A DNA stretch of 64,000 nucleotides from a virus: positions 64,001 to 128,000 of IMG/VR virus record IMGVR_UViG_3300047476_001426. One strand, written 5' to 3'. The notes under the pieces were generated by a model that was given only the letters and a program-made list of their open reading frames with translations, had not been told where the DNA came from and ran no database searches. Shown here one piece after another: positions 5,787 through 53,621 of the stretch (its first letter is position 1; every line of letters begins with the position of its first letter). The position numbers and the translations under genes are program-made.

Positions 5787-5860
5787 GGTACCGTAGCTCA
5801 GTTGGTAGAGCACCAGACTGAAAATCTGGGTTGTCACTGGTTCAAATCCAGTCGGTACCA
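5787..5860 (+). tRNA. tRNA-Phe(GAA)
   Basis: ggtaccg/cggtacc acceptor; ccaga-CT GAA AA-tctgg. Confidence 0.95.
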
Positions 5861-5962
5861 CATAGTGTTGGCTTCAAGTCCCATTAGGGAAGTACACTTA
5901 AATAAAACATACACGGGGAAAGTGTTGACTGCAGAAACAGCGAGTACCAACGAAGGGGTAAT

Positions 5963-6038
5963 GTCTTCGTAGCTCAGTTGGTTAGAGCACCTCACTTTTA
6001 ATGAGGGAGTCACGCGTTCGAGTCGCGTCGGGGACACA
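5963..6038 (+). tRNA. tRNA-Lys(TTT)
   Basis: cctca-CT TTT AA-tgagg; full cloverleaf. Confidence 0.95.
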
Positions 6039-6040
6039 AA

Positions 6041-6175
6041 GGTTGATTGGGGAATGATTATGTCTATAGTTCGAGAGTGGATACTGACTGACATAATCGG
6101 AGTTTGGAGGTATTCACCGTAGTAATGCCAATCGTAAAAGGAGATGTCCACTGAACCATCTTCTCCTTTCCTTGA
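6041..6175 (+). ncRNA. Structured RNA, unknown
   Basis: gattgg/ccaatc, gattatgtc/gacataatc, aaaggaga/tctccttt helices. Confidence 0.5.
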
Positions 6176-6178
6176 CTT

Positions 6179-6254
6179 AGTTCCTTAGCTCAGTTGGTTA
6201 GAGCATCTGCCTTACATGCAGAGGGTCGTTGGTTCGAATCCGACAGGGACTACA
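6179..6254 (+). tRNA. tRNA-Val(TAC)
   Basis: tctgc-CT TAC AT-gcaga. Confidence 0.95.
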
Positions 6255-6318
6255 ATAAACTAAAAATTGCATCAATAAACAAGGTTAGTTTATCGTGGCA
6301 AAAACAAGTTTAATAAAC

Positions 6319-6392
6319 ACGGGTGTGGTGAAAGGGTATCATACCGGTCTCCAAAACCGTTGTTGGGAGTTCGAATCTCTCCACCCGTGCAA
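6319..6392 (+). tRNA. tRNA-Trp(CCA)
   Basis: acgggtg/cacccgt, G73; cggt-CT CCA AA-accg. Confidence 0.9.
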
Positions 6393-6410
6393 ACTTTAAA
6401 AATAAAAACA

Positions 6411-6842
6411 ATGAACAATCAAATAGGAATCGATGCCGCAAAAATAAAATTTGAGGCTGAGAAAATGAAACTAAAAGAAGAAAGGGAACGAAGGATTAAA
6501 GAGTTTTGGGAAAACGGTATACCCAAATTAAATAATCCTGAAGACGTACCAACACTTCCAAGGGTGGATGAAAAAGAATGGAAAGAATACTATGTACCAA
6601 GATTGATTGATGCTGGTGCAATCCCTAAAAAAGATTTAATCCATGGTCAGATTTATATCGGTGAACATAGAAATACAACCATAGCAAGATGGAATCAGGA
6701 AACAAACAAATTCGACCACATGAGATATAAGTTTGGTTGGGCGAAAGATGATTGTAACCATTTTGAAGATGATGATGGATTCGCATTGTTTGTCCCAATT
6801 AGATTAGGAACACAAGAAGAATGGGATGAAAGAATTAAATAA
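6411..6842 (+). CDS. Hypothetical protein
   Basis: Likely start MNNQIG at 6411; the ORF-track start overlaps tRNA-Trp. Confidence 0.75.
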   Translation: MNNQIGIDAAKIKFEAEKMKLKEERERRIKEFWENGIPKLNNPEDVPTLPRVDEKEWKEYYVPRLIDAGAIPKKDLIHGQIYIGEHRNTTIARWNQETNKFDHMRYKFGWAKDDCNHFEDDDGFALFVPIRLGTQEEWDERIK

Positions 6843-6847
6843 ATGAT

Positions 6848-6923
6848 GCTCTCGTAGTTCAATGGATTAGAACATTTCACTACGGATGAAAGGGTTGGGA
6901 GTTCGAGTCTCTCCGAGAGTACA
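6848..6923 (+). tRNA. tRNA-Arg(ACG)
   Basis: tttca-CT ACG GA-tgaaa. Confidence 0.95.
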
Positions 6924-6927
6924 ATAG

Positions 6928-6999
6928 GGTCAGTTTGGTCATGGAGGCCGGTTAGTCTGCAAAACTAACGGAGTTGGTTCGATTCCAACATTGACCTCA
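6928..6999 (+). tRNA. tRNA-Cys(GCA)
   Basis: ttagt-CT GCA AA-actaa; U73. Confidence 0.9.
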
Positions 7000-7053
7000 A
7001 TATAAGGTCTGAACCTAATAGTGGGGGATTATTAGGTGTGGACCTTATAATAT

Positions 7054-7130
7054 GGTAGATATAGTTCAGTTGGTTAGAACGTCTGATTGTGGTTCAGAAG
7101 GTCGTCGGTTCGAATCCGATTATTTACCCA
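7054..7130 (+). tRNA. tRNA-His(GTG)
   Basis: tctga-TT GTG GT-tcaga; G-1:C73. Confidence 0.95.
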
Positions 7131-7136
7131 AACATT

Positions 7137-7211
7137 GGAATATAGCTCAATTGGTTAGAGCATTCGTCTGATACGCGAAAGGTTATAGGTTCGATTCCTA
7201 TTATTCCAACC
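7137..7211 (+). tRNA. tRNA-Ile(GAT)
   Basis: ttcgt-CT GAT AC-gcgaa. Confidence 0.9.
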
Positions 7212-7217
7212 AAACAT

Positions 7218-7291
7218 TGCGGGGTGGACTGGAGAGGTTCCAGCTCAGTCTCATAAGCTGAATGACGTGGGTTCGATTCCCACCCCCGCAA
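7218..7291 (+). tRNA. tRNA-Met(CAT), initiator-like acceptor
   Basis: tgcgggg/ccccgca; tcagt-CT CAT AA-gctga; lacks the three G:C anticodon-stem pairs of canonical fMet. Confidence 0.8.
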
Positions 7292-7380
7292 CTTTTTCAT
7301 TGAACATTTTGAAATATGGAATTTCATGTTTATATTTTAATTGTTCGTTTGTTCTTTGAAATAAAAATATGGATATAACT

Positions 7381-7455
7381 AGGGTCGAGCCAGATTTTGC
7401 CACGGTTATGTCAAGGGTTGGAAGGACCAGAGCTGGCCGTGACTACTCCAACCCA
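7381..7455 (+). ncRNA. Structured spacer RNA, unknown
   Basis: cacggtt/ggccgtg and gggttgga/tccaaccc helices. Confidence 0.4.
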
Positions 7456-7460
7456 CTATT

Positions 7461-7534
7461 GCCTCCTTAGCTCAGTTGGCCAGAGCGCCTCACTTGTAAT
7501 GAGGATGTCGTTGGTTCGAATCCGACAGGAGGCT
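7461..7534 (+). tRNA. tRNA-Thr(TGT)
   Basis: cctca-CT TGT AA-tgagg. Confidence 0.95.
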
Positions 7535-7540
7535 CTGCAG

Positions 7541-7630
7541 GGTTTTCGGTGTAAAGGGTGTCAAAACCCACCTGAGCAAAACCTAACATATGTCCACTAT
7601 GTGTTAGGGTAATGTGGATAAAACCGAAAT
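7541..7630 (+). ncRNA. Three-way-junction RNA, unknown
   Basis: tttcggt/accgaaa closing stem; gggt/accc and ctaaca..cata/tatg..tgttag arms. Confidence 0.45.
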
Positions 7631-7631
7631 T

Positions 7632-7705
7632 GGTCTCATAGTTAAACGGCTATAATGCAGCCCTGTCACGGCTGAGTTCGGGGTTCGATTCCCCGTGGGA
7701 CCGCA
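7632..7705 (+). tRNA. tRNA-Asp(GTC)
   Basis: cagcc-CT GTC AC-ggctg. Confidence 0.95.
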
Positions 7706-7992
7706 ATGAGTAAGAGATACTCAGGAAGATTGGCTACATTCTGTAAAAAAGTAGTGGTGGTAAAAAAATCCTCGACCTTAATGAGGTATCGATTTGGATA
7801 AAACGGTAGCAAGACTCTGCACCGCCGACGTATAGAGTTGACAGGTTTTTATGTGGTAAGACACTAATGAAAAAGACCCAATGAAGGAGGACGCTTTTAA
7901 GCAATATGTTCAGAGAGCGTTGGGGGATATGGTTCTCGAAACAGTGAGAGAAACCCGTTAAAATCTACTTATTGTAATCTCAGATAAGGAAA
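7706..7992 (+). ncRNA. ~290-nt multi-helix RNA, unknown
   Basis: About nine helices and a possible pseudoknot (see findings); no credible ORF. Confidence 0.6.
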
Positions 7993-7994
7993 TT

Positions 7995-8082
7995 GGAGAG
8001 TTGGCAGAGCTGGTTGAACGCGGCGGTCTTGAAAACCGTTTTACTGAAAGGTAACGGGGGTTCGAATCCCTCACTCTCCGCA
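7995..8082 (+). tRNA. tRNA-Ser(TGA)
   Basis: gcggt-CT TGA AA-accgt; long variable arm; G73. Confidence 0.95.
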
Positions 8083-8088
8083 AATTAT

Positions 8089-8163
8089 GGCCCTTTCGTC
8101 TATCGGTTAGGACAGGTCCCTTTCACGGACCAGAGACGGGTTCGATTCCCGTAGGGGCTACCA
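8089..8163 (+). tRNA. tRNA-Glu(TTC)
   Basis: ggtcc-CT TTC AC-ggacc; encoded CCA. Confidence 0.95.
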
Positions 8164-8179
8164 AACAAAAAAAACCAAT

Positions 8180-8422
8180 ATGTTAGAGAAAATTTTAGAA
8201 CAATATGAGAGTGAGGAAATCTTAATTGCCGATGGATTTGATAATGCGGTTATAGGTATTGATGAATCCACAATGAGATTAATTTATTCCGTTGAGAAGT
8301 GTATAAACATCCTAATGGAACAAGGAATGGATATGACAGAAGCGGTTGAATACTTTGATTTCAACGTCTCAGGTTCATATGTTGGTGAGAAGACTCCAAT
8401 ATGGTGTGATGATTTATTTTAA
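8180..8422 (+). CDS. Hypothetical acidic phage protein
   Basis: 80 aa ORF with ATG/TAA inside the tRNA array. Confidence 0.75.
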   Translation: MLEKILEQYESEEILIADGFDNAVIGIDESTMRLIYSVEKCINILMEQGMDMTEAVEYFDFNVSGSYVGEKTPIWCDDLF

Positions 8423-8440
8423 AAAAAAATTTAAAATTAT

Positions 8441-8470
8441 TTGTAAATAAAAAAACTTTTCGTATCTTTG
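8441..8470 (+). promoter_or_regulatory. Bacteroidota-type sigma70 promoter
   Basis: TTG 8441-8443, TATCTTTG 8463-8470. Confidence 0.75.
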
Positions 8471-8487
8471 TGATAGTTATTTAAGAA

Positions 8488-8592
8488 ATGATGAACTTGG
8501 TATACATACAACAACCGTTGAACAATCCACTTAGTGGTAATGGGAGAGGTATATATTTATGTGACCCAAGTTCGGAGTTAGTCAAATTATAA
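8488..8592 (+). CDS. 34-aa leader peptide MMNLVYIQQPLNNPLSGNGRGIYLCDPSSELVKL
   Basis: Short ORF between promoter and terminator; AAGTTCGG at 8568-8575 is complementary to the terminator 5' strand. Confidence 0.5.
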   Translation: MMNLVYIQQPLNNPLSGNGRGIYLCDPSSELVKL

Positions 8593-8616
8593 GGATAAGA
8601 TAACCTACTATAGATG

Positions 8617-8649
8617 ACCCGAACTTAAATAAAAAAGTTCGGGTTTTTT
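8617..8649 (+). terminator. Intrinsic terminator / attenuator
   Basis: acccgaactt-loop-aagttcgggt then T-run. Confidence 0.8.
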
Positions 8650-8693
8650 GTTTTTAGAGTTTTTTGTTTTTATATTTGAAGTGTTCTTTGACA
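8648..8693 (+). promoter_or_regulatory. Second Bacteroidota-type promoter plus boxA
   Basis: TTG 8648-8650, TATATTTG 8671-8678, TGTTCTTTGACA 8682-8693. Confidence 0.55.
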
Positions 8694-8710
8694 TATTGGT
8701 TTAAGTAGTT

Positions 8711-8797
8711 GCCGAGGTGATGGAATGGTAGACATGAGGGACTTAAAATCCCTTGGACAGTAATGTTCGTGTGGGTTCGACTCCCATCCTCGGTACA
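8711..8797 (+). tRNA. tRNA-Leu(TAA)
   Basis: aggga-CT TAA AA-tccct; long variable arm. Confidence 0.95.
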
Positions 8798-8800
8798 AAA

Positions 8801-8999
8801 GAAACTTCCTTACAGAAGGTGATAATGCTTCACTGAAAGGACTACTGACTTCCAAGTGGGTCGCAACCACAATCGGAAGGTACGACACGGCTCAGTAGAC
8901 TCTGTAACGGACCCTGCTCTATGGTGCACACATAACAGGTGATGGGGAACAAACCATCGGTAAAATCTAAACCCACGGTGAGCGTGGAAGGAATGTTTC
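8801..8999 (+). ncRNA. ~200-nt multibranched RNA, unknown
   Basis: gaaac.ttcctt/aaggaa.gtttc closing stem; ttacaga/tctgtaa, ctactga/tcagtag, cttcc/ggaag, gatgg/ccatc. Confidence 0.65.
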
Positions 9000-9009
9000 T
9001 TTTTTTAAT

Positions 9010-9085
9010 GTCTCCGTAGCTCAGCTGGATAGAGCAACAGCCTTCTAAGCTGTGGGTCATTGGTTCGAATCCAATCGGGGATACT
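9010..9085 (+). tRNA. tRNA-Arg(TCT)
   Basis: acagc-CT TCT AA-gctgt. Confidence 0.95.
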
Positions 9086-9226
9086 AAGATAGTGGTCACT
9101 CTCACAATGAAAGTCGACAAAGTAGTTGTGAGGTTCATAGTGTTCAGCACCCTCGGCCAGTGCACTGATAAAACTCAGAAGAAGCCGTTAAGATTGGAGC
9201 GAGACGGGTACTCCATCACTATCTTT
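9086..9226 (+). ncRNA. ~140-nt multibranched RNA, unknown
   Basis: aagatagtg/cactatctt closing stem; ctcacaa/ttgtgag, gcac/gtgc, ggag/ctcc arms. Confidence 0.6.
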
Positions 9227-9230
9227 TTTT

Positions 9231-9307
9231 CGGGATGTAGCGTAGTCCGGTTATCGCGCATGGTTTGGGACCATGAGGTCGCAGGTTCGAATCCTGCTAT
9301 CCCGACA
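9231..9307 (+). tRNA. tRNA-Pro(TGG)
   Basis: catgg-TT TGG GA-ccatg. Confidence 0.95.
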
Positions 9308-9355
9308 AAGTCCGAGAGTAATTAACTCGGTACCTGAGAGGTTCGAAACTCTCGA

Positions 9356-9450
9356 TTGATTATGGTGTAATGGCGCACAGCAGAACGGAGTACGGGCATC
9401 GGCCTCGAAAGGGGACGCAGGATTAAGGTTCGAATCCTTATTAATCAGCA
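9356..9450 (+). ncRNA. tRNA-like RNA without canonical anticodon arm
   Basis: ttgatta/taatcag acceptor, D-arm gtg..cac, T-arm taagg-ttcgaat-cctta; central region is cctc-gaaa-gggg. Confidence 0.65.
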
Positions 9451-9459
9451 AGCCGTCTT

Positions 9460-9650
9460 TTTTCATACTCGCACCGATGAGGGGGACTGTTGAGACGTTA
9501 AAGTAACAGTGTAAAGCAATCGGGGGTTTATCCAAGTTACCCACAAACTGGGGTCGTTTTCCTTACCGAAGGAGTTTCCCGACCAATAAACTGAAACTCA
9601 AACGATAGAAAAAAGTAGGGACACATGGGGAAGCTTTAACCCGTCCCGAA
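9460..9650 (+). ncRNA. ~190-nt structured RNA, unknown
   Basis: ccgat/atcgg, actgtt/aacagt, gtttat/ataaac, ggtcg/cgacc, tcctt/aagga, gggac/gtccc. Confidence 0.55.
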
Positions 9651-9651
9651 A

Positions 9652-9752
9652 TAGTCAGGTGAGTTGGTACTCACGGAGGGTCGTTAAATGGAAAGATACC
9701 ACATCGACGAGGTGGTAAATGCCGAACAGGTTCGAGTCCTGTCCTGACTACT
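9652..9752 (+). ncRNA. tRNA-like RNA (TAGTCAGG acceptor family, copy 1)
   Basis: tagtcagg/cctgacta 8-bp stem, T-arm acagg-ttcgagt-cctgt, no anticodon loop. Confidence 0.65.
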
Positions 9753-9823
9753 AAGTAGAGAGAACCGTGAGTTTGCGGATGGAAACAACCATAAAACGAG
9801 CATACGTCATACTCTACTTAACA

Positions 9824-9919
9824 TAGTCAGGTTTGGTACAAGGTCGGTTCGAGTCCGATGGAAGGTCATGGATGTCGGGTAGCTCCCTGTAGAGAGGTTC
9901 GATTCCTCTCCTGACTACG
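9824..9919 (+). ncRNA. tRNA-like RNA (TAGTCAGG acceptor family, copy 2)
   Basis: Identical acceptor stem to 9652; two T-loop-like hairpins (tcgg-ttcgagt-ccga, agagg-ttcgatt-cctct). Confidence 0.65.
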
Positions 9920-9995
9920 ATACGGTGTTGACCTGTCCGCGACCGAAATGTATACAAAACAGTGGAGGGTGACAAATAGGGAGAGACCTGTACAT

Positions 9996-10138
9996 GATTA
10001 AGTGGCGAAATTGGTTTACGCGCTGGTCAGTACCCAAAAGAGTGTTGAATGGGGAAAACTGGTGGACATACTACAGACACGAGTAGTAGGAGATTATGTC
10101 TTTAAATCCGTACAGGTTCGAATCCTGTCTTAATCTCG
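9996..10138 (+). ncRNA. tRNA-like RNA with ~70-nt expanded centre
   Basis: gattaag/cttaatc acceptor, Leu-type D-arm, T-arm acagg-ttcgaat-cctgt; insert hairpin gacata.ctac/gtag.tatgtc. Confidence 0.65.
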
Positions 10139-10263
10139 AATGTGGTTCGATTCCACTCGTTAACTGAGGTTTTGGAAAGTAGTCCAATGGAGGTACACAC
10201 TCCACTTAGAAATAAGGTAGAATGATGGAGAACAGTTTGGAGGTGTGGGAAGACACACAAAAT

Positions 10264-10337
10264 TCCTCGATAGCTCAGCGGTAGAGCAAACGGCTGTTAA
10301 CCGTTAGGTCCCAAGTTCGAATCTTGGTCGGGGAGCA
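10264..10337 (+). tRNA. tRNA-Asn(GTT)
   Basis: aacgg-CT GTT AA-ccgtt; G73. Confidence 0.95.
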
Positions 10338-10411
10338 AAAAAATCGTTGATGGAAACATCGAAGGTGTACAATACTAGTAACACCGTAGGTTTGGCGATG
10401 TCCTACAATAG

Positions 10412-10494
10412 GCCTTGGTGGTGGAATGGTAGACACGCTAGTCTTAGGAACTAGTGGCGAAAGTCGTGTCGGTTCGAGTCCGACCTGAGGTACA
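10412..10494 (+). tRNA. tRNA-Leu(TAG)
   Basis: ctagt-CT TAG GA-actag. Confidence 0.95.
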
Positions 10495-10497
10495 AAT

Positions 10498-10603
10498 TCA
10501 TTCTTAGTGTTATGAGGTAAAACACTTTGACTCTCACATCGCCTGGTTAGTACTGACCCGAATGTGAGACGAGTAAGTTGGTTCGAATCCAACAGAATGG
10601 ACA
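10498..10603 (+). ncRNA. tRNA-like RNA with elongated anticodon arm
   Basis: tcattct/agaatgg, D-arm gtgt/acac, ctcacat/atgtgag stem enclosing 22 nt, T-arm gttgg-ttcgaat-ccaac. Confidence 0.65.
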
Positions 10604-10664
10604 ACCCGTCGAAAGCTCATGTTGGTCCGAGTGAGATGGAAACGCGGATATCGGACCCGTTATT

Positions 10665-10747
10665 GGAAGGTGGGTGAGTGGTTAAAACCGGCAGACTGTA
10701 AATCTGCTCCCATTGGGTACGGGGGTTCGAATCCCTCCCTTCCAACA
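10665..10747 (+). tRNA. tRNA-Tyr(GTA)
   Basis: gcaga-CT GTA AA-tctgc. Confidence 0.95.
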
Positions 10748-10758
10748 AAAATATCATT

Positions 10759-11310
10759 ATGAAAAAAAATAAAATAATTTCAGAGATGTTATCAAACATC
10801 ACACCTGAAATGAAAGAAAAATGGAAACAAGAGAGAATTGAACGTAAAAACAAATTAACACCCGAATATCAACTCGGATATTATGTTGGTTTGGAAATTG
10901 TTCACAGATATCTACCAACTCTTTCTACTGATATGATACAATCTCGCACCGTGATTGAAGTTTCTGAAGAAGATACTTTAGAAAATGAAAGATTGGATAC
11001 CGAATGGTATACAACAACAAAACACGGTGGAGAATGGAATGGTGTTGATGAAAACGGCAATAAAGAGAAATGGGATTTATACCATCAACACAATAAAATG
11101 TTGGGAAGGAAATACCTACCAAATCCATTGGAGTGTTACATGAGTTTGTTAAATGTTCAAAACATGGATGAATTTAAAAAAGGTTTAAGGTTCGCATTGT
11201 GGGATTGTGATATGTGTTCATACAATATTGAACCTGAAAACATAAAAATTTACGATGATGAACAAGCCATGTTTACTATTATCGAATTTCAATTAGATTC
11301 AGTGGTGTAG
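10759..11310 (+). CDS. Hypothetical protein
   Basis: 183 aa; TAG stop lies inside the 5' end of tRNA-Ile(TAT). Confidence 0.75.
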   Translation: MKKNKIISEMLSNITPEMKEKWKQERIERKNKLTPEYQLGYYVGLEIVHRYLPTLSTDMIQSRTVIEVSEEDTLENERLDTEWYTTTKHGGEWNGVDENGNKEKWDLYHQHNKMLGRKYLPNPLECYMSLLNVQNMDEFKKGLRFALWDCDMCSYNIEPENIKIYDDEQAMFTIIEFQLDSVV

Positions 11311-11377
11311 CTCAATTGGTGAGAGCAGGACTCTTATACAGTCAAGGTTATGGGTTCAAATCCCGTCATCACTACCA
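11301..11377 (+). tRNA. tRNA-Ile(TAT)
   Basis: agtggtg/catcact, A73, encoded CCA; gact-CT TAT AC-agtc. Confidence 0.85.
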
Positions 11378-11428
11378 ATTATCGGTTAAATAACCGATAA
11401 AATAAATTATCGTCGATTTGAACGATAT

Positions 11429-11504
11429 GGTCCCTTAGCTCAGTTGGTTAGAGCAACTGACTCATAATCAGTAGGCCCACGGTTCAAGCCCGTGAGGGAC
11501 CACA
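11429..11504 (+). tRNA. tRNA(CAT), probably Ile2 (lysidine) rather than elongator Met
   Basis: actga-CT CAT AA-tcagt; ggtccct acceptor resembles Ile2 tRNAs. Confidence 0.8.
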
Positions 11505-11527
11505 GAGATATTTATATATAAAAAACT

Positions 11528-11980
11528 ATGGGAATAGAATTAAAAAAGAAAAAACAACTTATCGAAAGATTAAATAAAAGGTTGTTATCGGAAGCCGAAA
11601 TGGAATGTCCAAAACCAACTCAAGATTTGGAATTAAACACCAAAAACAGAGATAAATCAATAAAGGCAGATTATATTAAATATGGTCCACTTAATATTGA
11701 TGAACCGGGAGATTATTGGGAAATGGTTGCATCCGATTGGGATACAACTGTTGAGGCAGCAAAAAAATCACTATGTGGTAATTGTGTTGCTTTTGATATT
11801 TCACCAAGAATGGATGAATGTATGCCGGGTTCTGTTTCTGATGACAGCGGTAGATTAGGTTACTGTTGGATGCATCATTTTAAATGTCATTCAGCAAGAA
11901 CATGTAAAACATGGGCTAAAGGTGGACCTATTACCGAAGACACGGTTTCATACGAATGGCAAGAAAAAAATAAAGAATAA
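11528..11980 (+). CDS. Cys-rich hypothetical protein with late-gene N-terminal motif
   Basis: CGNC...CM...YCWMHHFKCHSARTC; N-terminus RLNKRLLSEA; TATTTATA at 11509. Confidence 0.8.
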   Translation: MGIELKKKKQLIERLNKRLLSEAEMECPKPTQDLELNTKNRDKSIKADYIKYGPLNIDEPGDYWEMVASDWDTTVEAAKKSLCGNCVAFDISPRMDECMPGSVSDDSGRLGYCWMHHFKCHSARTCKTWAKGGPITEDTVSYEWQEKNKE

Positions 11981-12043
11981 ATGTAGTCGTACCCTTAACT
12001 CCAAAACTCACAACTGAGTCTCTGTTATGGGAAGGCTACTCCC

Positions 12044-12116
12044 GCGGAAATAGCTCAGTTGGTAGAGCATCACCTTGCCAAGGTGAGGGTCGCGAGTTCG
12101 AGTCTCGTTTTCTGCT
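12044..12116 (+). tRNA. tRNA-Gly(GCC)
   Basis: tcacc-TT GCC AA-ggtga; U73. Confidence 0.95.
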
Positions 12117-12185
12117 CTAAGTAAACCTTAAAAAGGGCCCTTCCGTTGGTACGACAACGGCTTGTTGAGCCCGGGTTTACTTTTT

Positions 12186-12259
12186 GCGAATATCGTATAA
12201 TGGTCATTACTTCAGACTTCCAATCTGAAGATGTCAGTTCGATTCTGACTATTCGCTCA
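12186..12259 (+). tRNA. tRNA-Gly(TCC)
   Basis: tcaga-CT TCC AA-tctga; U73. Confidence 0.95.
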
Positions 12260-12310
12260 ATCATTATAGTGGTCACTAAATCGGGTTAGTGAAAATCTAT
12301 TTGATATTAT

Positions 12311-12383
12311 TGTCCTGTGGTGTAACGGCAGCACATCTGGTTTTGGTCCAGAGAATTGAGGTTCGAATCCTTGCGGGACAACA
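12311..12383 (+). tRNA. tRNA-Gln(TTG)
   Basis: tgtcctg/cgggaca; tctgg-TT TTG GT-ccaga. Confidence 0.95.
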
Positions 12384-12439
12384 AAATTTTTAAATTATGA
12401 AAAAAGAAAGAGACTTCTATTAGGTAACACTAATAGAAT

Positions 12440-12709
12440 ATGTCAAAACACAGAAACAGAGCTAAGCTCAAAAACGCAGAATGTGGTAGGGATTACCACC
12501 TAATTTCTTTAAACGAATGGTATCCCCTTTATTGGGATGAGGGGTACAACTTCTATCCACGATGGAGAAGAGGTTACAAAAATCCCAACAAGACAATTCC
12601 AATCTTTAAAGTACGTGAGTACAGAACTTGGAAGTACAACAGAAAAAACCAATATGTTGAGAGGAAAGTTACCCAAGTTGGTGAAGGGGACGGTTTGCTA
12701 AACCGTTAG
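12440..12709 (+). CDS. Small basic hypothetical protein
   Basis: Arg/Lys/Trp/Tyr-rich; last 47 nt overlap tRNA-Ser(GCT); ends in TAG. Confidence 0.6.
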   Translation: MSKHRNRAKLKNAECGRDYHLISLNEWYPLYWDEGYNFYPRWRRGYKNPNKTIPIFKVREYRTWKYNRKNQYVERKVTQVGEGDGLLNR

Positions 12710-12752
12710 GTCGAGTAATCGGCGCGAGGGTTCGAGCCCCTCACTTTCCGCA
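12663..12752 (+). tRNA. tRNA-Ser(GCT)
   Basis: acggt-TT GCT AA-accgt; long variable arm; G73. Confidence 0.95.
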
Positions 12753-12781: not shown

Positions 12782-13243
12782 ATGACAAAATTTAGAACAT
12801 TGTACGGAACACCCATAACTGACGTTATTGGTTACATCAAAGATTATTTGGTTGATAAAACTGATGTTGAGATATTAATTGGTTCGGATTCACAATCATT
12901 TAGTAATTCAAAAACAGTTTACGGGGTGGTTATTGCTCTTTACACAACAGGTAAAGGTGCACACGTACTATGTACTAAAGATATCACACCATTTGAAAAA
13001 GACACATCAAGTAGATTAATGACCGAAGTTTGGAAAGCTGTTGAAGTTGCCGAACATTTGAGAAATAATGGTTTACCAAAAGCCACATGGATTGATATAG
13101 ATTTAAATCCCGACCCAAGATATAAATCAAACAAAGTTTTGAGACAAGCAGTTGGTTTGGTTGAAGGTATGGGATACAAGGTAAGATACAAACACGCAGG
13201 TGCTATGGTGACTTACAGTGCAAACCATTTGGTAAGAATTTAA
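12782..13243 (+). CDS. RNase H-like YkuK (DUF458) family protein
   Basis: ILIGSDSQ...LMTEVWKAVEVA...IDIDLN...ANHLVR acidic RNase H-like pattern. Confidence 0.75.
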   Translation: MTKFRTLYGTPITDVIGYIKDYLVDKTDVEILIGSDSQSFSNSKTVYGVVIALYTTGKGAHVLCTKDITPFEKDTSSRLMTEVWKAVEVAEHLRNNGLPKATWIDIDLNPDPRYKSNKVLRQAVGLVEGMGYKVRYKHAGAMVTYSANHLVRI

Positions 13244-13260
13244 AAAAAAGATAAGAGGGC

Positions 13261-13307
13261 TTGTTTTTTTAAAAAAGTCCTTTTATCTTTGTAATGTAAT
13301 ATTTATA
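13261..13307 (+). promoter_or_regulatory. Bacteroidota-type promoter plus TATTTATA motif
   Basis: TTG 13261, TATCTTTG 13284-13291, TATTTATA 13300-13307. Confidence 0.7.
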
Positions 13308-13310
13308 GTC

Positions 13311-13652
13311 ATGAGAAAAAACTAGATTAACAGACTTGTAGTCGTAACCCGTAAAGACTTAAAACCCGGGTACCAAATTGCACAATCGGGACATGCAATC
13401 TCTCAGTTCATTTTAGAACACCCCGAATTGTCGAAACGATGGAACAACAGTTATCTGATTTCATTATCCATCGATTCAGAAGAAAAATTACAACAATTAC
13501 TTTTTAGGTTAGAAGATTCAGGAATACCTGTATCTCATTTCATTGAACCCGATATCGGGAATCAATTAACATCTATTTGCTTTCTCGAAACCGAGGAAAC
13601 AAAAAGATTCACATCATCATTGCCTTTATCCTTAAAGGAATATAATAAATAA
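13311..13652 (+). CDS. Pth2-family peptidyl-tRNA hydrolase with in-frame amber codon at codon 5
   Basis: ATG AGA AAA AAC TAG ATT AAC AGA CTT GTA GTC GTA ACC CGT AAA GAC TTA...; RLVVVTRKDLKPGYQIAQSGHA and FIEPDIGNQLTSI are Pth2-type motifs and the first lies upstream of the ORF-track start. Confidence 0.8.
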
Positions 13653-13672
13653 ACAATTTAATCTTAAAAATT

Positions 13673-13927
13673 ATGAAGTAGATTAACAAAAAATGTGAAA
13701 TTATTTTTCACTTCAACAAGAAACACTTGGAAAATCCGACGATTCCAATGTGGGTTGTGAAATGTCGGGGCGACACTTATTATGTTCATCATGTTGATGT
13801 CTCACCGGGTGTGGGATTCTCAACAAAAGAAACTCCCGATAACCCTCATACCAAAGGGAGTATAAAATTCAAAGCAAATTTGGAAATTGAGGAAAACAAT
13901 AACATAATAACAGCTAAAATTTTTTAA
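13673..13927 (+). CDS. Hypothetical protein with in-frame amber codon at codon 3
   Basis: ATG AAG TAG ATT AAC AAA AAA TGT GAA ATT ATT TTT CAC TTC AAC..., in frame with the 13727 ORF. Confidence 0.75.
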
Positions 13928-13929
13928 AA

Positions 13930-14268
13930 ATGAAAAATACAAAACACAACCCAACAATGATGATTAAATCATCTTTCTCGAACAAGATTCATAATCTTTT
14001 AGGTATCAAACACAAACCATATTCAAAAGAGTGGTTTGAAGGTATGAAACAAAGAAGAGAATTGACTAATGAAGAAAAGTCTAAACTTTTTGATGAAATT
14101 ATGAAGGTGTATGTTGAAACATCCGACGAATTGGTAAACTATCGTAAAGATAGGAGATTAAAAAAATGGGTCAACAAAAAACGTTTAGAAAGAGGATATG
14201 TCCCAAAGAAAAAAACAAAAAAAGAAGATTATGAAAAAAATCTTCAAAATGATTTGGAGATATCTTAA
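13930..14268 (+). CDS. Basic hypothetical protein
   Basis: 112 aa ORF starting 2 nt after the previous stop. Confidence 0.7.
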   Translation: MKNTKHNPTMMIKSSFSNKIHNLLGIKHKPYSKEWFEGMKQRRELTNEEKSKLFDEIMKVYVETSDELVNYRKDRRLKKWVNKKRLERGYVPKKKTKKEDYEKNLQNDLEIS

Positions 14269-14286
14269 TTAATATCTACTTTTGAA

Positions 14287-14383
14287 TTGTGATTGAAAAG
14301 TGACAGTGACAAATAGACCAAGTGGGGCACACGTAAAATTGTATCAGTCGAAAGTCGAGGTGATAGACCACCATCAATCACAA
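14287..14383 (+). ncRNA. Structured RNA abutting the suppressor tRNA
   Basis: ttgtgattga/tcaatcacaa 10-bp closing stem; ggtg/cacc arm. Confidence 0.55.
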
Positions 14384-14385
14384 AC

Positions 14386-14459
14386 GGTCTCGTGGTGTAG
14401 CGGTAACATTACGGTCTCTAAAACCGATAGTCACGGGTTCAAATCCCGTCGGGACCACA
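14386..14459 (+). tRNA. Amber suppressor tRNA (CTA), Gln-like body
   Basis: ggtctcg/cgggacc, A73; cggt-CT CTA AA-accg (anticodon 14418-14420); T-arm acggg-ttcaaat-cccgt. Confidence 0.9.
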
Positions 14460-52710: not shown

Positions 52711-53058
52711 ATGGACGTAAATTCATTCTACACGGTACTTATTACCACGATAACAGTTTTAGGTTCCGCAAGTGCGTGGAGATACTACGAAAAAAGGGCC
52801 ATGAGAAAAGAAAAATCTGAAGATTATATGAAAGACGAATGTAGAGAACGAATTGCCAAATTAGAGGTACTATTGGAAAGGTCATCTTCTGAAAAAGATG
52901 ATTTAAGGTCTAAGATTTTGGATTTAACTAGAGAAGTTGCTGAACTTAGGGTAAAAGTTGAGTTTTTAGAAAACAAAAACAAAGAGTTAAAAAAGAAGAC
53001 TGAGGTTATTGTTCCTGTTGCACCAGTAAAAAGAGGTAGAAAACCTAAAACCACCTAA
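52711..53058 (+). CDS. TM-anchored coiled-coil protein
   Basis: Start MDVNSF; TATTTATA at 52686. Confidence 0.7.
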   Translation: MDVNSFYTVLITTITVLGSASAWRYYEKRAMRKEKSEDYMKDECRERIAKLEVLLERSSSEKDDLRSKILDLTREVAELRVKVEFLENKNKELKKKTEVIVPVAPVKRGRKPKTT

Positions 53059-53621
53059 CAATCTTTAGTTAGGGTATCAAACACTAAAATTATTTCACTC
53101 ATCGAGTCATAAGAGAAACATTCTGAATATCCAGAAAAGTTTTCCAAAAGGGGTTTAAATTTTTTTACACCCCTTTTTTTATTTAACTTGTCCTTTATCT
53201 GTTCCTCTAATTTTTCAGCATCTTTAGTGTCAATCCTCCTCAATATAGTTTCTAATGTATAACCTTCATAACCATAATCTTTACTAAATCTACGAAGAAT
53301 AAAACGTTTCGAGGTTATCCCAACTTTAACAAATGTTTTACCTGTTTTTTCCTCTTTCATCACAATGAGGTACAGTGATTTGGGTAACTTCTCAAGTTTT
53401 TTCTTTTTATTCATTGAATGTTTGGTTATTTTATTTTGTGCATATTTCTTAGCATCCTCTAAATTTTTAAATTCTTTAACATCTCTATTTGGATTCGGAA
53501 AATATTTTTTGAACCTATTAGAATATATTATCTTTCCACTGTCAGCAACAAAAACCTTATTTTTAGTTGTAACCCTTTCATATATTGAATAGAATCCAAC
53601 TTTGAGTATTAACTTATCCAT
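53055..53621 (-). CDS. GIY-YIG-like (T5orf172-like) endonuclease
   Basis: LYLIVM...VKVGITS...RRF...GYSECF; ends in TAG. Confidence 0.65.
   Translation of the reverse strand: MDKLILKVGFYSIYERVTTKNKVFVADSGKIIYSNRFKKYFPNPNRDVKEFKNLEDAKKYAQNKITKHSMNKKKKLEKLPKSLYLIVMKEEKTGKTFVKVGITSKRFILRRFSKDYGYEGYTLETILRRIDTKDAEKLEEQIKDKLNKKRGVKKFKPLLENFSGYSECFSYDSMSEIILVFDTLTKDC

Follow-up and report, generated by a model that had tools for sequence, protein, structure and literature searches.

Genes whose expression needs a suppressor transfer RNA (tRNA) are familiar from laboratory amber mutants on supE or supF hosts and from the synthetic amber-gated switches of genetic-code expansion, in which a purine after the UAG codon is preferred. 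The bar minigenes of phage lambda, mini open reading frames (ORFs) of 2-3 codons that load the peptidyl-tRNA hydrolase Pth, do not share the frame of the gene behind them and have TAA or TGA as their stop. In the code-15 phages (TAG = Gln; crAss-like, Lak and other gut phages), in-frame stops occur in 26-71% of the genes, mainly late, structural and lysis genes, the coding density under code 11 is low, and the in-frame stop has been proposed to delay translation until the tRNA is present (bioRxiv 10.1101/2021.08.26.457843; PMC9523058). For Xanthomonas phage XacN1, 18 amber gene-end stops were read through by the authors and no target was found (PMC5852040). The PTH2 genes of jumbo phages are already known, and early-stop gating is not mentioned there (PMC7824862); in the open-access literature that was searched, no paper was found to describe the gating of phage PTH2-like genes by an early stop. 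Here we analyze a stretch of 64,000 nucleotides (the window), bases 64001-128000 of a single 136,485-bp freshwater phage contig (IMG/VR record IMGVR_UViG_3300047476_001426; G+C 33%), in which two neighbouring genes, for a PTH2-like hydrolase (gene 1) and for an 84-residue protein (gene 2), each carry an in-frame TAG within their first five codons, and a tRNA gene with the anticodon CUA lies downstream. Comparison with homologous loci suggests that both genes are gated by this early amber codon and that the phage's own tRNA(CUA) decodes it, a reading to which we give a probability of about 0.85.

Gene 1 (13311-13652, + strand; Pfam PF01981) comprises 113 codons including the gate and ends with TAA at 13650-13652. 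It begins with ATG (13311) AGA AAA AAC TAG ATT AAC AGA, the gate being codon 5 (13323-13325). Gene 2 (13673-13927, + strand), without family assignment and predicted to be all-beta, bears the motif FHFNKKHL...GFSTKETPDNPHTKGS and begins with ATG (13673) AAG TAG ATT AAC AAA, the gate being codon 3 (13679-13681). The amber-suppressor tRNA gene reported by ARAGORN at 14386-14458, with an anticodon loop CUCUAAA, a short variable arm, a G1-C72 pair and discriminator A, begins 458 nt past the gene 2 stop on the same strand, and matches Rfam RF00005 with 63.7 bits (gathering score 29) over model positions 1-71 of 71 with a full cloverleaf. A first reading of the window by a model, made from the letters alone (the original prediction), had described this arrangement; on re-reading, its coordinates, codons and distances in both genes and the tRNA are all correct, including a CTA tRNA about 460 nt past the second gene in the same direction. 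Its claim that no other ATG precedes the conserved N-terminal motifs also holds. Past the TAG, gene 1 has no in-frame ATG and its first TTG lies 34 codons on, where a start would drop R14, D16, G20, Q22, Q25 and H28, residues that vary little or not at all among 32 diverse homologues. For gene 2, TTG first appears 15 codons and ATG 22 codons past the TAG, both beyond the invariant block F12-H-F-N-K-K-H18. Since canonical starts past either TAG would cost invariant residues, neither gene has a usable alternative start.

In contrast to the laboratory and synthetic switches, the arrangement is natural and conserved, and lock and key lie on one phage genome. As with the bar minigenes, an unsuppressed ATG-x-TAG would give a very short peptidyl-tRNA, the classical substrate of Pth, and one of the gated genes is itself Pth-like; unlike the minigenes, the frame continues past the stop, which is almost always TAG. 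Phage XacN1 likewise carries a tRNA(CUA) in a large tRNA cluster and a peptidyl-tRNA hydrolase; compared with what its paper describes, the target here is a gate at the N-terminus, which ordinary gene calling removes. With the code-15 phages the locus shares a phage tRNA(CUA) that would decode an in-frame TAG inside a standard-code host. However, only 2 of ~150 genes are concerned, with one TAG each at codons 3-5 and a normal code-11 reading, and they lie in a tRNA cluster beside an RNase H-like gene instead of among late, structural or lysis genes.

The 136-kb genome is read in the standard code. When crude ORFs are drawn from ATG to stop with a minimum of 60 codons, they account for 90% of its 136,485 bp; the 151 crude ORFs end in TAA (118), TGA (26) or TAG (7). 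The cover by open frames of at least 100 codons is 0.912 under code 11; it becomes 0.934 if TAG is read as sense and 0.935 in the control that reads TGA as sense. Genome-wide recoding was thus rejected: reading TAG as sense gains no more than the TGA control, TAG ends few ORFs and two genes are affected. The cover figures and the stop counts agree with the earlier statement that the other genes are intact in code 11. The three TAG-ended genes which that statement listed (window 10759-11310, 12440-12709 and 53055-53621) are among the seven TAG-ended ORFs, with four others. A back-up in-frame stop follows within 3 codons in 5 of these 7, which is not distinctive as the fraction for TGA-ended ORFs is 0.54. 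None of the TAG-ended genes has a coherent read-through extension, the 76-codon tail past the gene at 53055 being of low complexity. The homologous loci described below behave in the same way, with a median gain in open frame of 0.052 for TAG as sense and of 0.064 for TGA as sense; as TAG opens no more frame than TGA, the gated loci belong to standard-code phages.

Within the genome, a scan for ATG, 0-6 codons and TAG followed by 60 or more open codons returns 11 matches, and only the two genes above are genes without another start; the remaining matches overlap tRNAs, lie on the strand opposite long genes or are closely followed by a normal ATG. One of these frames, at genome position 13432, was judged noise: it runs opposite a 170-codon ORF that is coupled to its neighbour, and PHROGs has no match for either strand. 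The 10-mer TAGATTAACA occurs three times in the 136,485-bp genome (~1.2 expected), twice as the two gates and once inside a minus-strand gene.

To place the two genes among their relatives, ~250 loci were gathered from IMG/VR, public phage records and metagenome contigs, selected by protein similarity only. Of the 96 distinct PTH2-like N-termini in a first set, 95 show an in-frame TAG, which is the third codon in 50, the fourth in 21 and the fifth in 13; a canonical start lies between the TAG and the conserved core in 13 only. In a wider set that includes high-GC phages, the 145 distinct PTH2-like genes divide into 113 TAG-gated, 2 TAA-gated and 30 ungated ones; the TAG lies at about codons 2-10, in 92% at codons 2-5 and mostly at codon 3, and an early TAG is kept in nearly all homologues down to ~35% identity. 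Gene 2 has 774 database relatives, and 47 distinct homologues were found with the gate. Many database proteins of 84-85 residues start with MKQI..., the DNA revealing that this Q is a TAG under a code-15 gene call. In ungated relatives the N-terminus is just as long, and the place of the gate is taken by a sense codon, as in M-A-T-I-K-M-G-D versus M-S-L-TAG-N-I-K-M-G-D for the PTH2-like protein, or M-L-N-I versus M-K-TAG-I for gene 2. Since the ungated N-termini are equally long, the homologues do not start downstream of the TAG; of the two outcomes anticipated for an alignment of homologues, Gln or a kept TAG, it is the TAG that is conserved.

The gate is also present in named phages. In Tenacibaculum phage pT24 the gene reads ATG AAA TAG ATA ACC, and the annotated coding sequence (BPT24_235) begins at an internal ATG. 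Rhizobium phage RHph_I1_18 possesses an unannotated gene 2 homologue (L001:584-832) with TAG at codon 6, and the uncultured huge phage LR756504 reads ATG ACA TAG ATT. That public annotation truncates or skips such genes, as in pT24 and RHph_I1_18, is what would be expected of broken genes or assembly errors. Yet the TAGs recur in independent assemblies and in more than 100 lineages, and the sequence downstream is conserved as protein (78% mean column identity for gene 2), so that we regard this explanation as hardly credible. At the present locus, Logan contigs from DNA runs of two other studies cover 13200-13968 with one difference each, none of them at the TAGs, which answers the question of an assembly error raised by the original prediction. 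A Logan contig from an RNA library, of a relative ~94% identical, covers 13616-13983 and keeps the TAG; its depth is low and gives a weak hint of transcription. As an aside, at the pT24 locus (L005:557-1509) the annotated ORF runs over 272 codons from its internal ATG, and the PTH2-like part may be fused to a further domain.

The nucleotides around the gate are constrained as well. Among 95 PTH2-like gates, the TAG is followed by A in 67 and by G in 26 (purine in 93/95, 98%), and TAG ATT is preferred in both families, which are unrelated; this speaks for a constraint on the nucleotide context and against one on the protein. Amber suppression in E. coli is most efficient with a purine at +4. 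The seven-nucleotide context that the original prediction had seen at both gates, TAG-ATT-AAC-A, is indeed shared here. Its exact form is lineage-specific, the general rule being TAG followed by a purine, most often as ATT. The gate stop is TAG in 113 of 115 cases, whereas TAG ends 7 of the 151 ordinary ORFs of this AT-rich genome. In a blind scan of ~4 Mb of the loci for ATG, 1-5 codons, a stop and then at least 70 open codons without ATG in the first 10, the distinct matches number 322 for TAG, 152 for TAA and 158 for TGA. The TAG matches cluster into the PTH2-like family (108), gene 2 (47) and one group of 5, the rest being mostly singletons and pairs. The two large clusters indicate that the excess over the TAA and TGA background is made up of the PTH2-like and gene 2 families alone. 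The feature is real, conserved and non-random. These figures also bear on tolerated drift, according to which TAG became usable as sense thanks to a suppressor kept for another purpose, an early step to code 15 without any switch. Drift is in line with the suppressor tRNAs that adjoin ungated homologues, with a low TAG stop usage (7/151) that would suit a suppressor-adapted genome, and with the proposal of Borges et al. that loss of a stop codon precedes recoding. Drift would, however, spread TAGs over many genes and positions, while in over 100 diverged lineages they are confined, above background, to the same two families and to a position near codon 3, which makes drift very unlikely.

Regarding the group of five amber-gated ORFs, four are listed (L012:8682 onward, L040, L111 and L114). 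Three of them have a PTH2-like N-terminal piece (..KLRVVTRRDL..AVQAG) followed by a DUF723-like sequence of homing-endonuclease type, and the ORF of L114 keeps the DUF723-like latter part only. This group may represent a mobile insertion into the PTH2-like gene, or a duplicate of it.

The gate is closely linked to the tRNA. A tRNA(CUA) lies within 10 kb of 98 of the 113 TAG-gated PTH2-like genes, and of 76 of the 81 that have at least 5 kb of flanking sequence on both sides; of the 55 distinct PTH2-like loci in the first set that extend 9 kb or more on each side, 52 possess it. Over the 86 measured loci of the first set, the tRNA(CUA) is always on the same strand, with a median gap of 691 nt and a distance of 1 kb or less in 63. 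By comparison, a suppressor tRNA of any kind accompanies 12 of the 30 ungated homologues (10 CUA, 2 UUA; Fisher p 5e-7 versus the gated ones). The strongest single result is that gate codon and anticodon covary: both TAA-gated homologues, L116 (ATG ACT TAA ATT AAA) and L204 (M-A-TAA-N-K-L-Y), possess a tRNA(UUA) and no tRNA(CUA) (p 2e-4). In pT24 the tRNA(CUA) is found 2.5 kb upstream. In RHph_I1_18 it lies 57 nt past the gene 2 homologue, and tblastn returned no PTH2-like gene in that phage. In the mycobacteriophage IkeLoa it lies 250 nt past a gene annotated as peptidyl tRNA hydrolase. The conservation of the TAG, the same-strand tRNA and the TAA/UUA covariation, all comparative evidence, support the proposal that translation of the two genes depends on the phage CUA tRNA. 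A scan for relatives of the TAA-gated L116 gene gave L116's own contig only. Separately, a tRNA(UUA) adjoins an ungated PTH2-like gene (L236) and a gene starting M-N-E-TAG-A-M (L232); by wobble, a UUA anticodon could decode UAG as well as UAA.

Several observations weigh against gating by the phage tRNA. The case is built on sequence comparison, with RNA-library contigs hinting at transcription, and the counts are not corrected for shared ancestry and hence not phylogenetically independent. The tRNA(CUA) was not detected beside 15 gated genes, 5 of them among the 81 with at least 5 kb of flank, although some of these absences are ARAGORN misses at default settings (L052, L031, L085). Such loci speak for read-through by near-cognate host tRNAs in a leaky context, of the classical programmed type and without need of the phage tRNA. 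A purine at +4 also weakens termination by release factor 1 (RF1) in E. coli, which counts for the same explanation. Host read-through nevertheless leaves the same-strand linkage and the TAA/UUA covariation unexplained, as well as the anticodon loop CUCUAAA in 99 of 123 tRNAs, and we consider it highly improbable. Of the 30 ungated homologues, 10 also adjoin a tRNA(CUA), from which it follows that the tRNA or the enzyme does more than serve the gate.

The remaining adverse points concern initiation. The codon after each TAG of the present locus is ATT, a rare initiator, and mycobacteriophages read ATG/GTG-TAG-GTG, with the second GTG at the better Shine-Dalgarno spacing, so that the gate may be bypassed in these phages. 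In IkeLoa (L177:5975-5985) the annotated GTG start comes right after ATG TAG, and in Myrna (L006:592-600) right after GTG TAG, both with a tRNA(CUA) nearby. If we assume that ATG-x-TAG is a leader mini-ORF of 2-4 codons, with restart or initiation at the next codon (ATT, ATA or GTN, as found after the TAG in most cases), the well-spaced mycobacteriophage GTG falls into place and no suppressor tRNA is needed. But several lineages have AAC, ACA, ACT, AGA, AAA or AGC after the TAG, all non-initiators, and any stop in any frame would do for a mini-ORF, whereas the gates are all in frame and, in 113 of 115 cases, TAG. A restart would also leave the pairing of TAA with tRNA(UUA) and the linkage to the tRNA unexplained, and is in our view quite improbable.

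The anticodon loop CUCUAAA of the suppressor tRNAs, present in 99 of the 123 distinct tRNA(CUA), is that of strong amber suppressors such as supF, and the discriminator A73 is found in 80 of the 123. A long variable arm is absent, which argues against Ser, Leu and bacterial Tyr, and G3:U70 is not among the listed 3-70 pair types, which argues against Ala. The amino-acid identity could not be read from the sequence, a further point against the proposed gating: no single isoacceptor family stands out, the nearest neighbours, all low-scoring, being spread among Arg, Trp, Lys, Thr, Asn and other tRNAs. In E. coli, amber suppressors of such a type typically receive Lys (A73) or Gln (G73), and our guess is that one of these two residues is inserted at the UAG.

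Turning to the proteins, gene 1 returns a hit with Pfam PF01981 (25.8 bits, gathering score 23, residues 9-79), and its family profile matches the Pth2 structure 2zv3 (E 6.3e-11, profile positions 7-107 of 115) and also 24bt, 1rzw, 1q7s and 1wn2. It thus resembles the archaeal and eukaryotic Pth2 proteins (PF01981; 2zv3, 1rzw, 1q7s) over its whole length, and differs from them as a divergent subfamily. The scores against the NCBIfam equivalogs are far below their cut-offs (TIGR00283, 17.2 bits versus 82; NF003314, 15.8 versus 126), hence the label PTH2-like and not Pth2. A Lys and an Asp are catalytic in archaeal Pth2. In the HMMER alignment to 2zv3, the Lys of the GK loop has no counterpart, and Glu79 of an invariant E-P-D stands opposite the Asp of R-D-A-G; His28 and Thr87 are invariant in the PTH2-like family. 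By its sequence, gene 1 falls within the Pth2 fold family, as a divergent member. Gene 2 returns no Pfam, PHROG or NCBIfam match. Its mean column identity of 78% extends across phages of Bacteroidota-like and alphaproteobacterial hosts. The AlphaFold2 model (mean predicted local distance difference test score, pLDDT, 83.7) predicts a small all-beta protein, for which Foldseek against the PDB returned nothing below E 0.27, VIA-align wide a best Z of 3.4 and the ESM Atlas scores of at most 0.81. In phages Atu_ph07 and Phosso, gene 2 forms the C-terminal domain of ungated proteins of 173-176 residues, whose N-terminal part has no Pfam match.

If the gate works as proposed, a ribosome that starts at the ATG would make 2 or 4 peptide bonds and reach the UAG in a context that favours suppression, with a purine at +4, usually AUU, and often Lys or Asn codons before. 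Without charged suppressor tRNA, termination by RF1 or drop-off of a short peptidyl-tRNA would yield no protein. With charged tRNA(CUA) outcompeting RF1, an amino acid would be placed in a tolerant N-terminal tail and the full protein made. As the gate lies within this variable tail, the identity of the residue may not matter. Since more than 100 distant phages share the arrangement, the PTH2-like protein and the 84-residue protein are probably made only when the suppressor tRNA overrides the stop, and, read-through needing charged tRNA(CUA), the output of both would track the level of working suppressor tRNA. The early position of the gate would make the aborted product nearly free of cost, a ribosome waiting at codon 3 would cover the start site, and the very short peptidyl-tRNAs would be poor substrates for release.

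Both the occurrence of read-through and its purpose are arrived at by inference, the purpose with the least certainty. The purpose that we prefer is that the gate couples two translation-related proteins to the suppression capacity, as a delay, a feed-forward or a feedback, and does not serve general recoding; a pure timer or a tRNA quality test, as first suggested for this locus, would be compatible with the comparisons. A bolder reading takes the tRNA(CUA), the PTH2-like hydrolase and the 84-residue protein as a self-contained translational circuit, in which the two proteins would act on the suppression system itself and make suppression self-limiting or self-amplifying. They might, for instance, hydrolyse aminoacyl- or peptidyl-tRNA linked to the suppressor, or counteract RF1 or ribosome rescue. 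It would amount to a natural orthogonal switch, carried as a cassette by phages of several bacterial phyla. The ungated PTH2-like genes that adjoin tRNA(CUA) in high-GC phages, the pairing of gene 2 alone with the tRNA in RHph_I1_18 and the unusual conservation of gene 2 fit this circuit, which we hold to be possible but rather doubtful. The same three observations also speak for the preferred purpose, in that both proteins may act together with suppression or upon it, their supply being tied to its capacity.

If the preferred reading of an amber gate opened by the phage tRNA is true, it would represent a natural and widely conserved lock-and-key control of translation through a single early stop, distinct from genome-wide recoding. 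It would supply a concrete natural target for the orphan amber-suppressor tRNAs that standard-code phages carry, and tie a PTH2-like enzyme and a highly conserved 84-residue protein to nonsense suppression. It also corrects the annotation of such genes, usually truncated, skipped or silently called in code 15. The idea is testable in cultured systems, namely pT24, RHph_I1_18 and the Bixzunavirus mycobacteriophages in M. smegmatis, and the natural contexts (a Lys or Asn codon, UAG, AUU; loop CUCUAAA) may guide the design of amber-suppression tools.

The surroundings of the gated pair are rich in tRNA genes. ARAGORN reports 25 of them, for nearly all amino acids, at 5787-12751 (+ strand), followed by the RNase H-like gene (PF04308; 12782-13243, + strand) directly upstream of the pair. 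A nucleotide search of the phage collection returned no match. Between gene 2 and the tRNA(CUA), ORF3 (13930-14268, + strand, from the ORF list) encodes 112 Lys-rich codons without a gate; it sits right behind gene 2 in 47 related loci (tblastn) and has no significant family match in Pfam, PHROG or NCBIfam. As for transcription, the Bacteroidota -7 promoter consensus is TAnnTTTG, and TATCTTTG (13284-13291, + strand), 20 nt ahead of the gene 1 ATG, fits it as a pattern match only. A promoter-like pattern TTTG-N20-TACTTTTG (14253-14284, + strand; pattern scan) is found ~100 nt before the tRNA. The tRNA may thus be co-transcribed with the genes or transcribed from its own promoter, either being possible. 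The full -33/-7 pattern has 14 matches in the window versus 9.7 expected, which is not significant, and a sigma-70 pattern scan was not above chance.

Just ahead of the tRNA(CUA), a long-range inverted repeat (GTGATTGA ... TCAATCAC) brackets 95 nt (window 14289-14383), and the RNA fold of the tRNA leader is no stabler than that of shuffled sequences (z -0.58). At two of the homologous loci (L051:9400-9612 and L052:9400-9602), a conserved element of 130-200 nt (GAGAGGTACAA...GATGCCAAATTCCTGTC...GGTCCGCAAGACC) lies directly 5' of a tRNA-like sequence with a CUA anticodon, which ARAGORN misses or misreads at default settings. This element may be an intron or a ribozyme-like leader of the suppressor tRNA.

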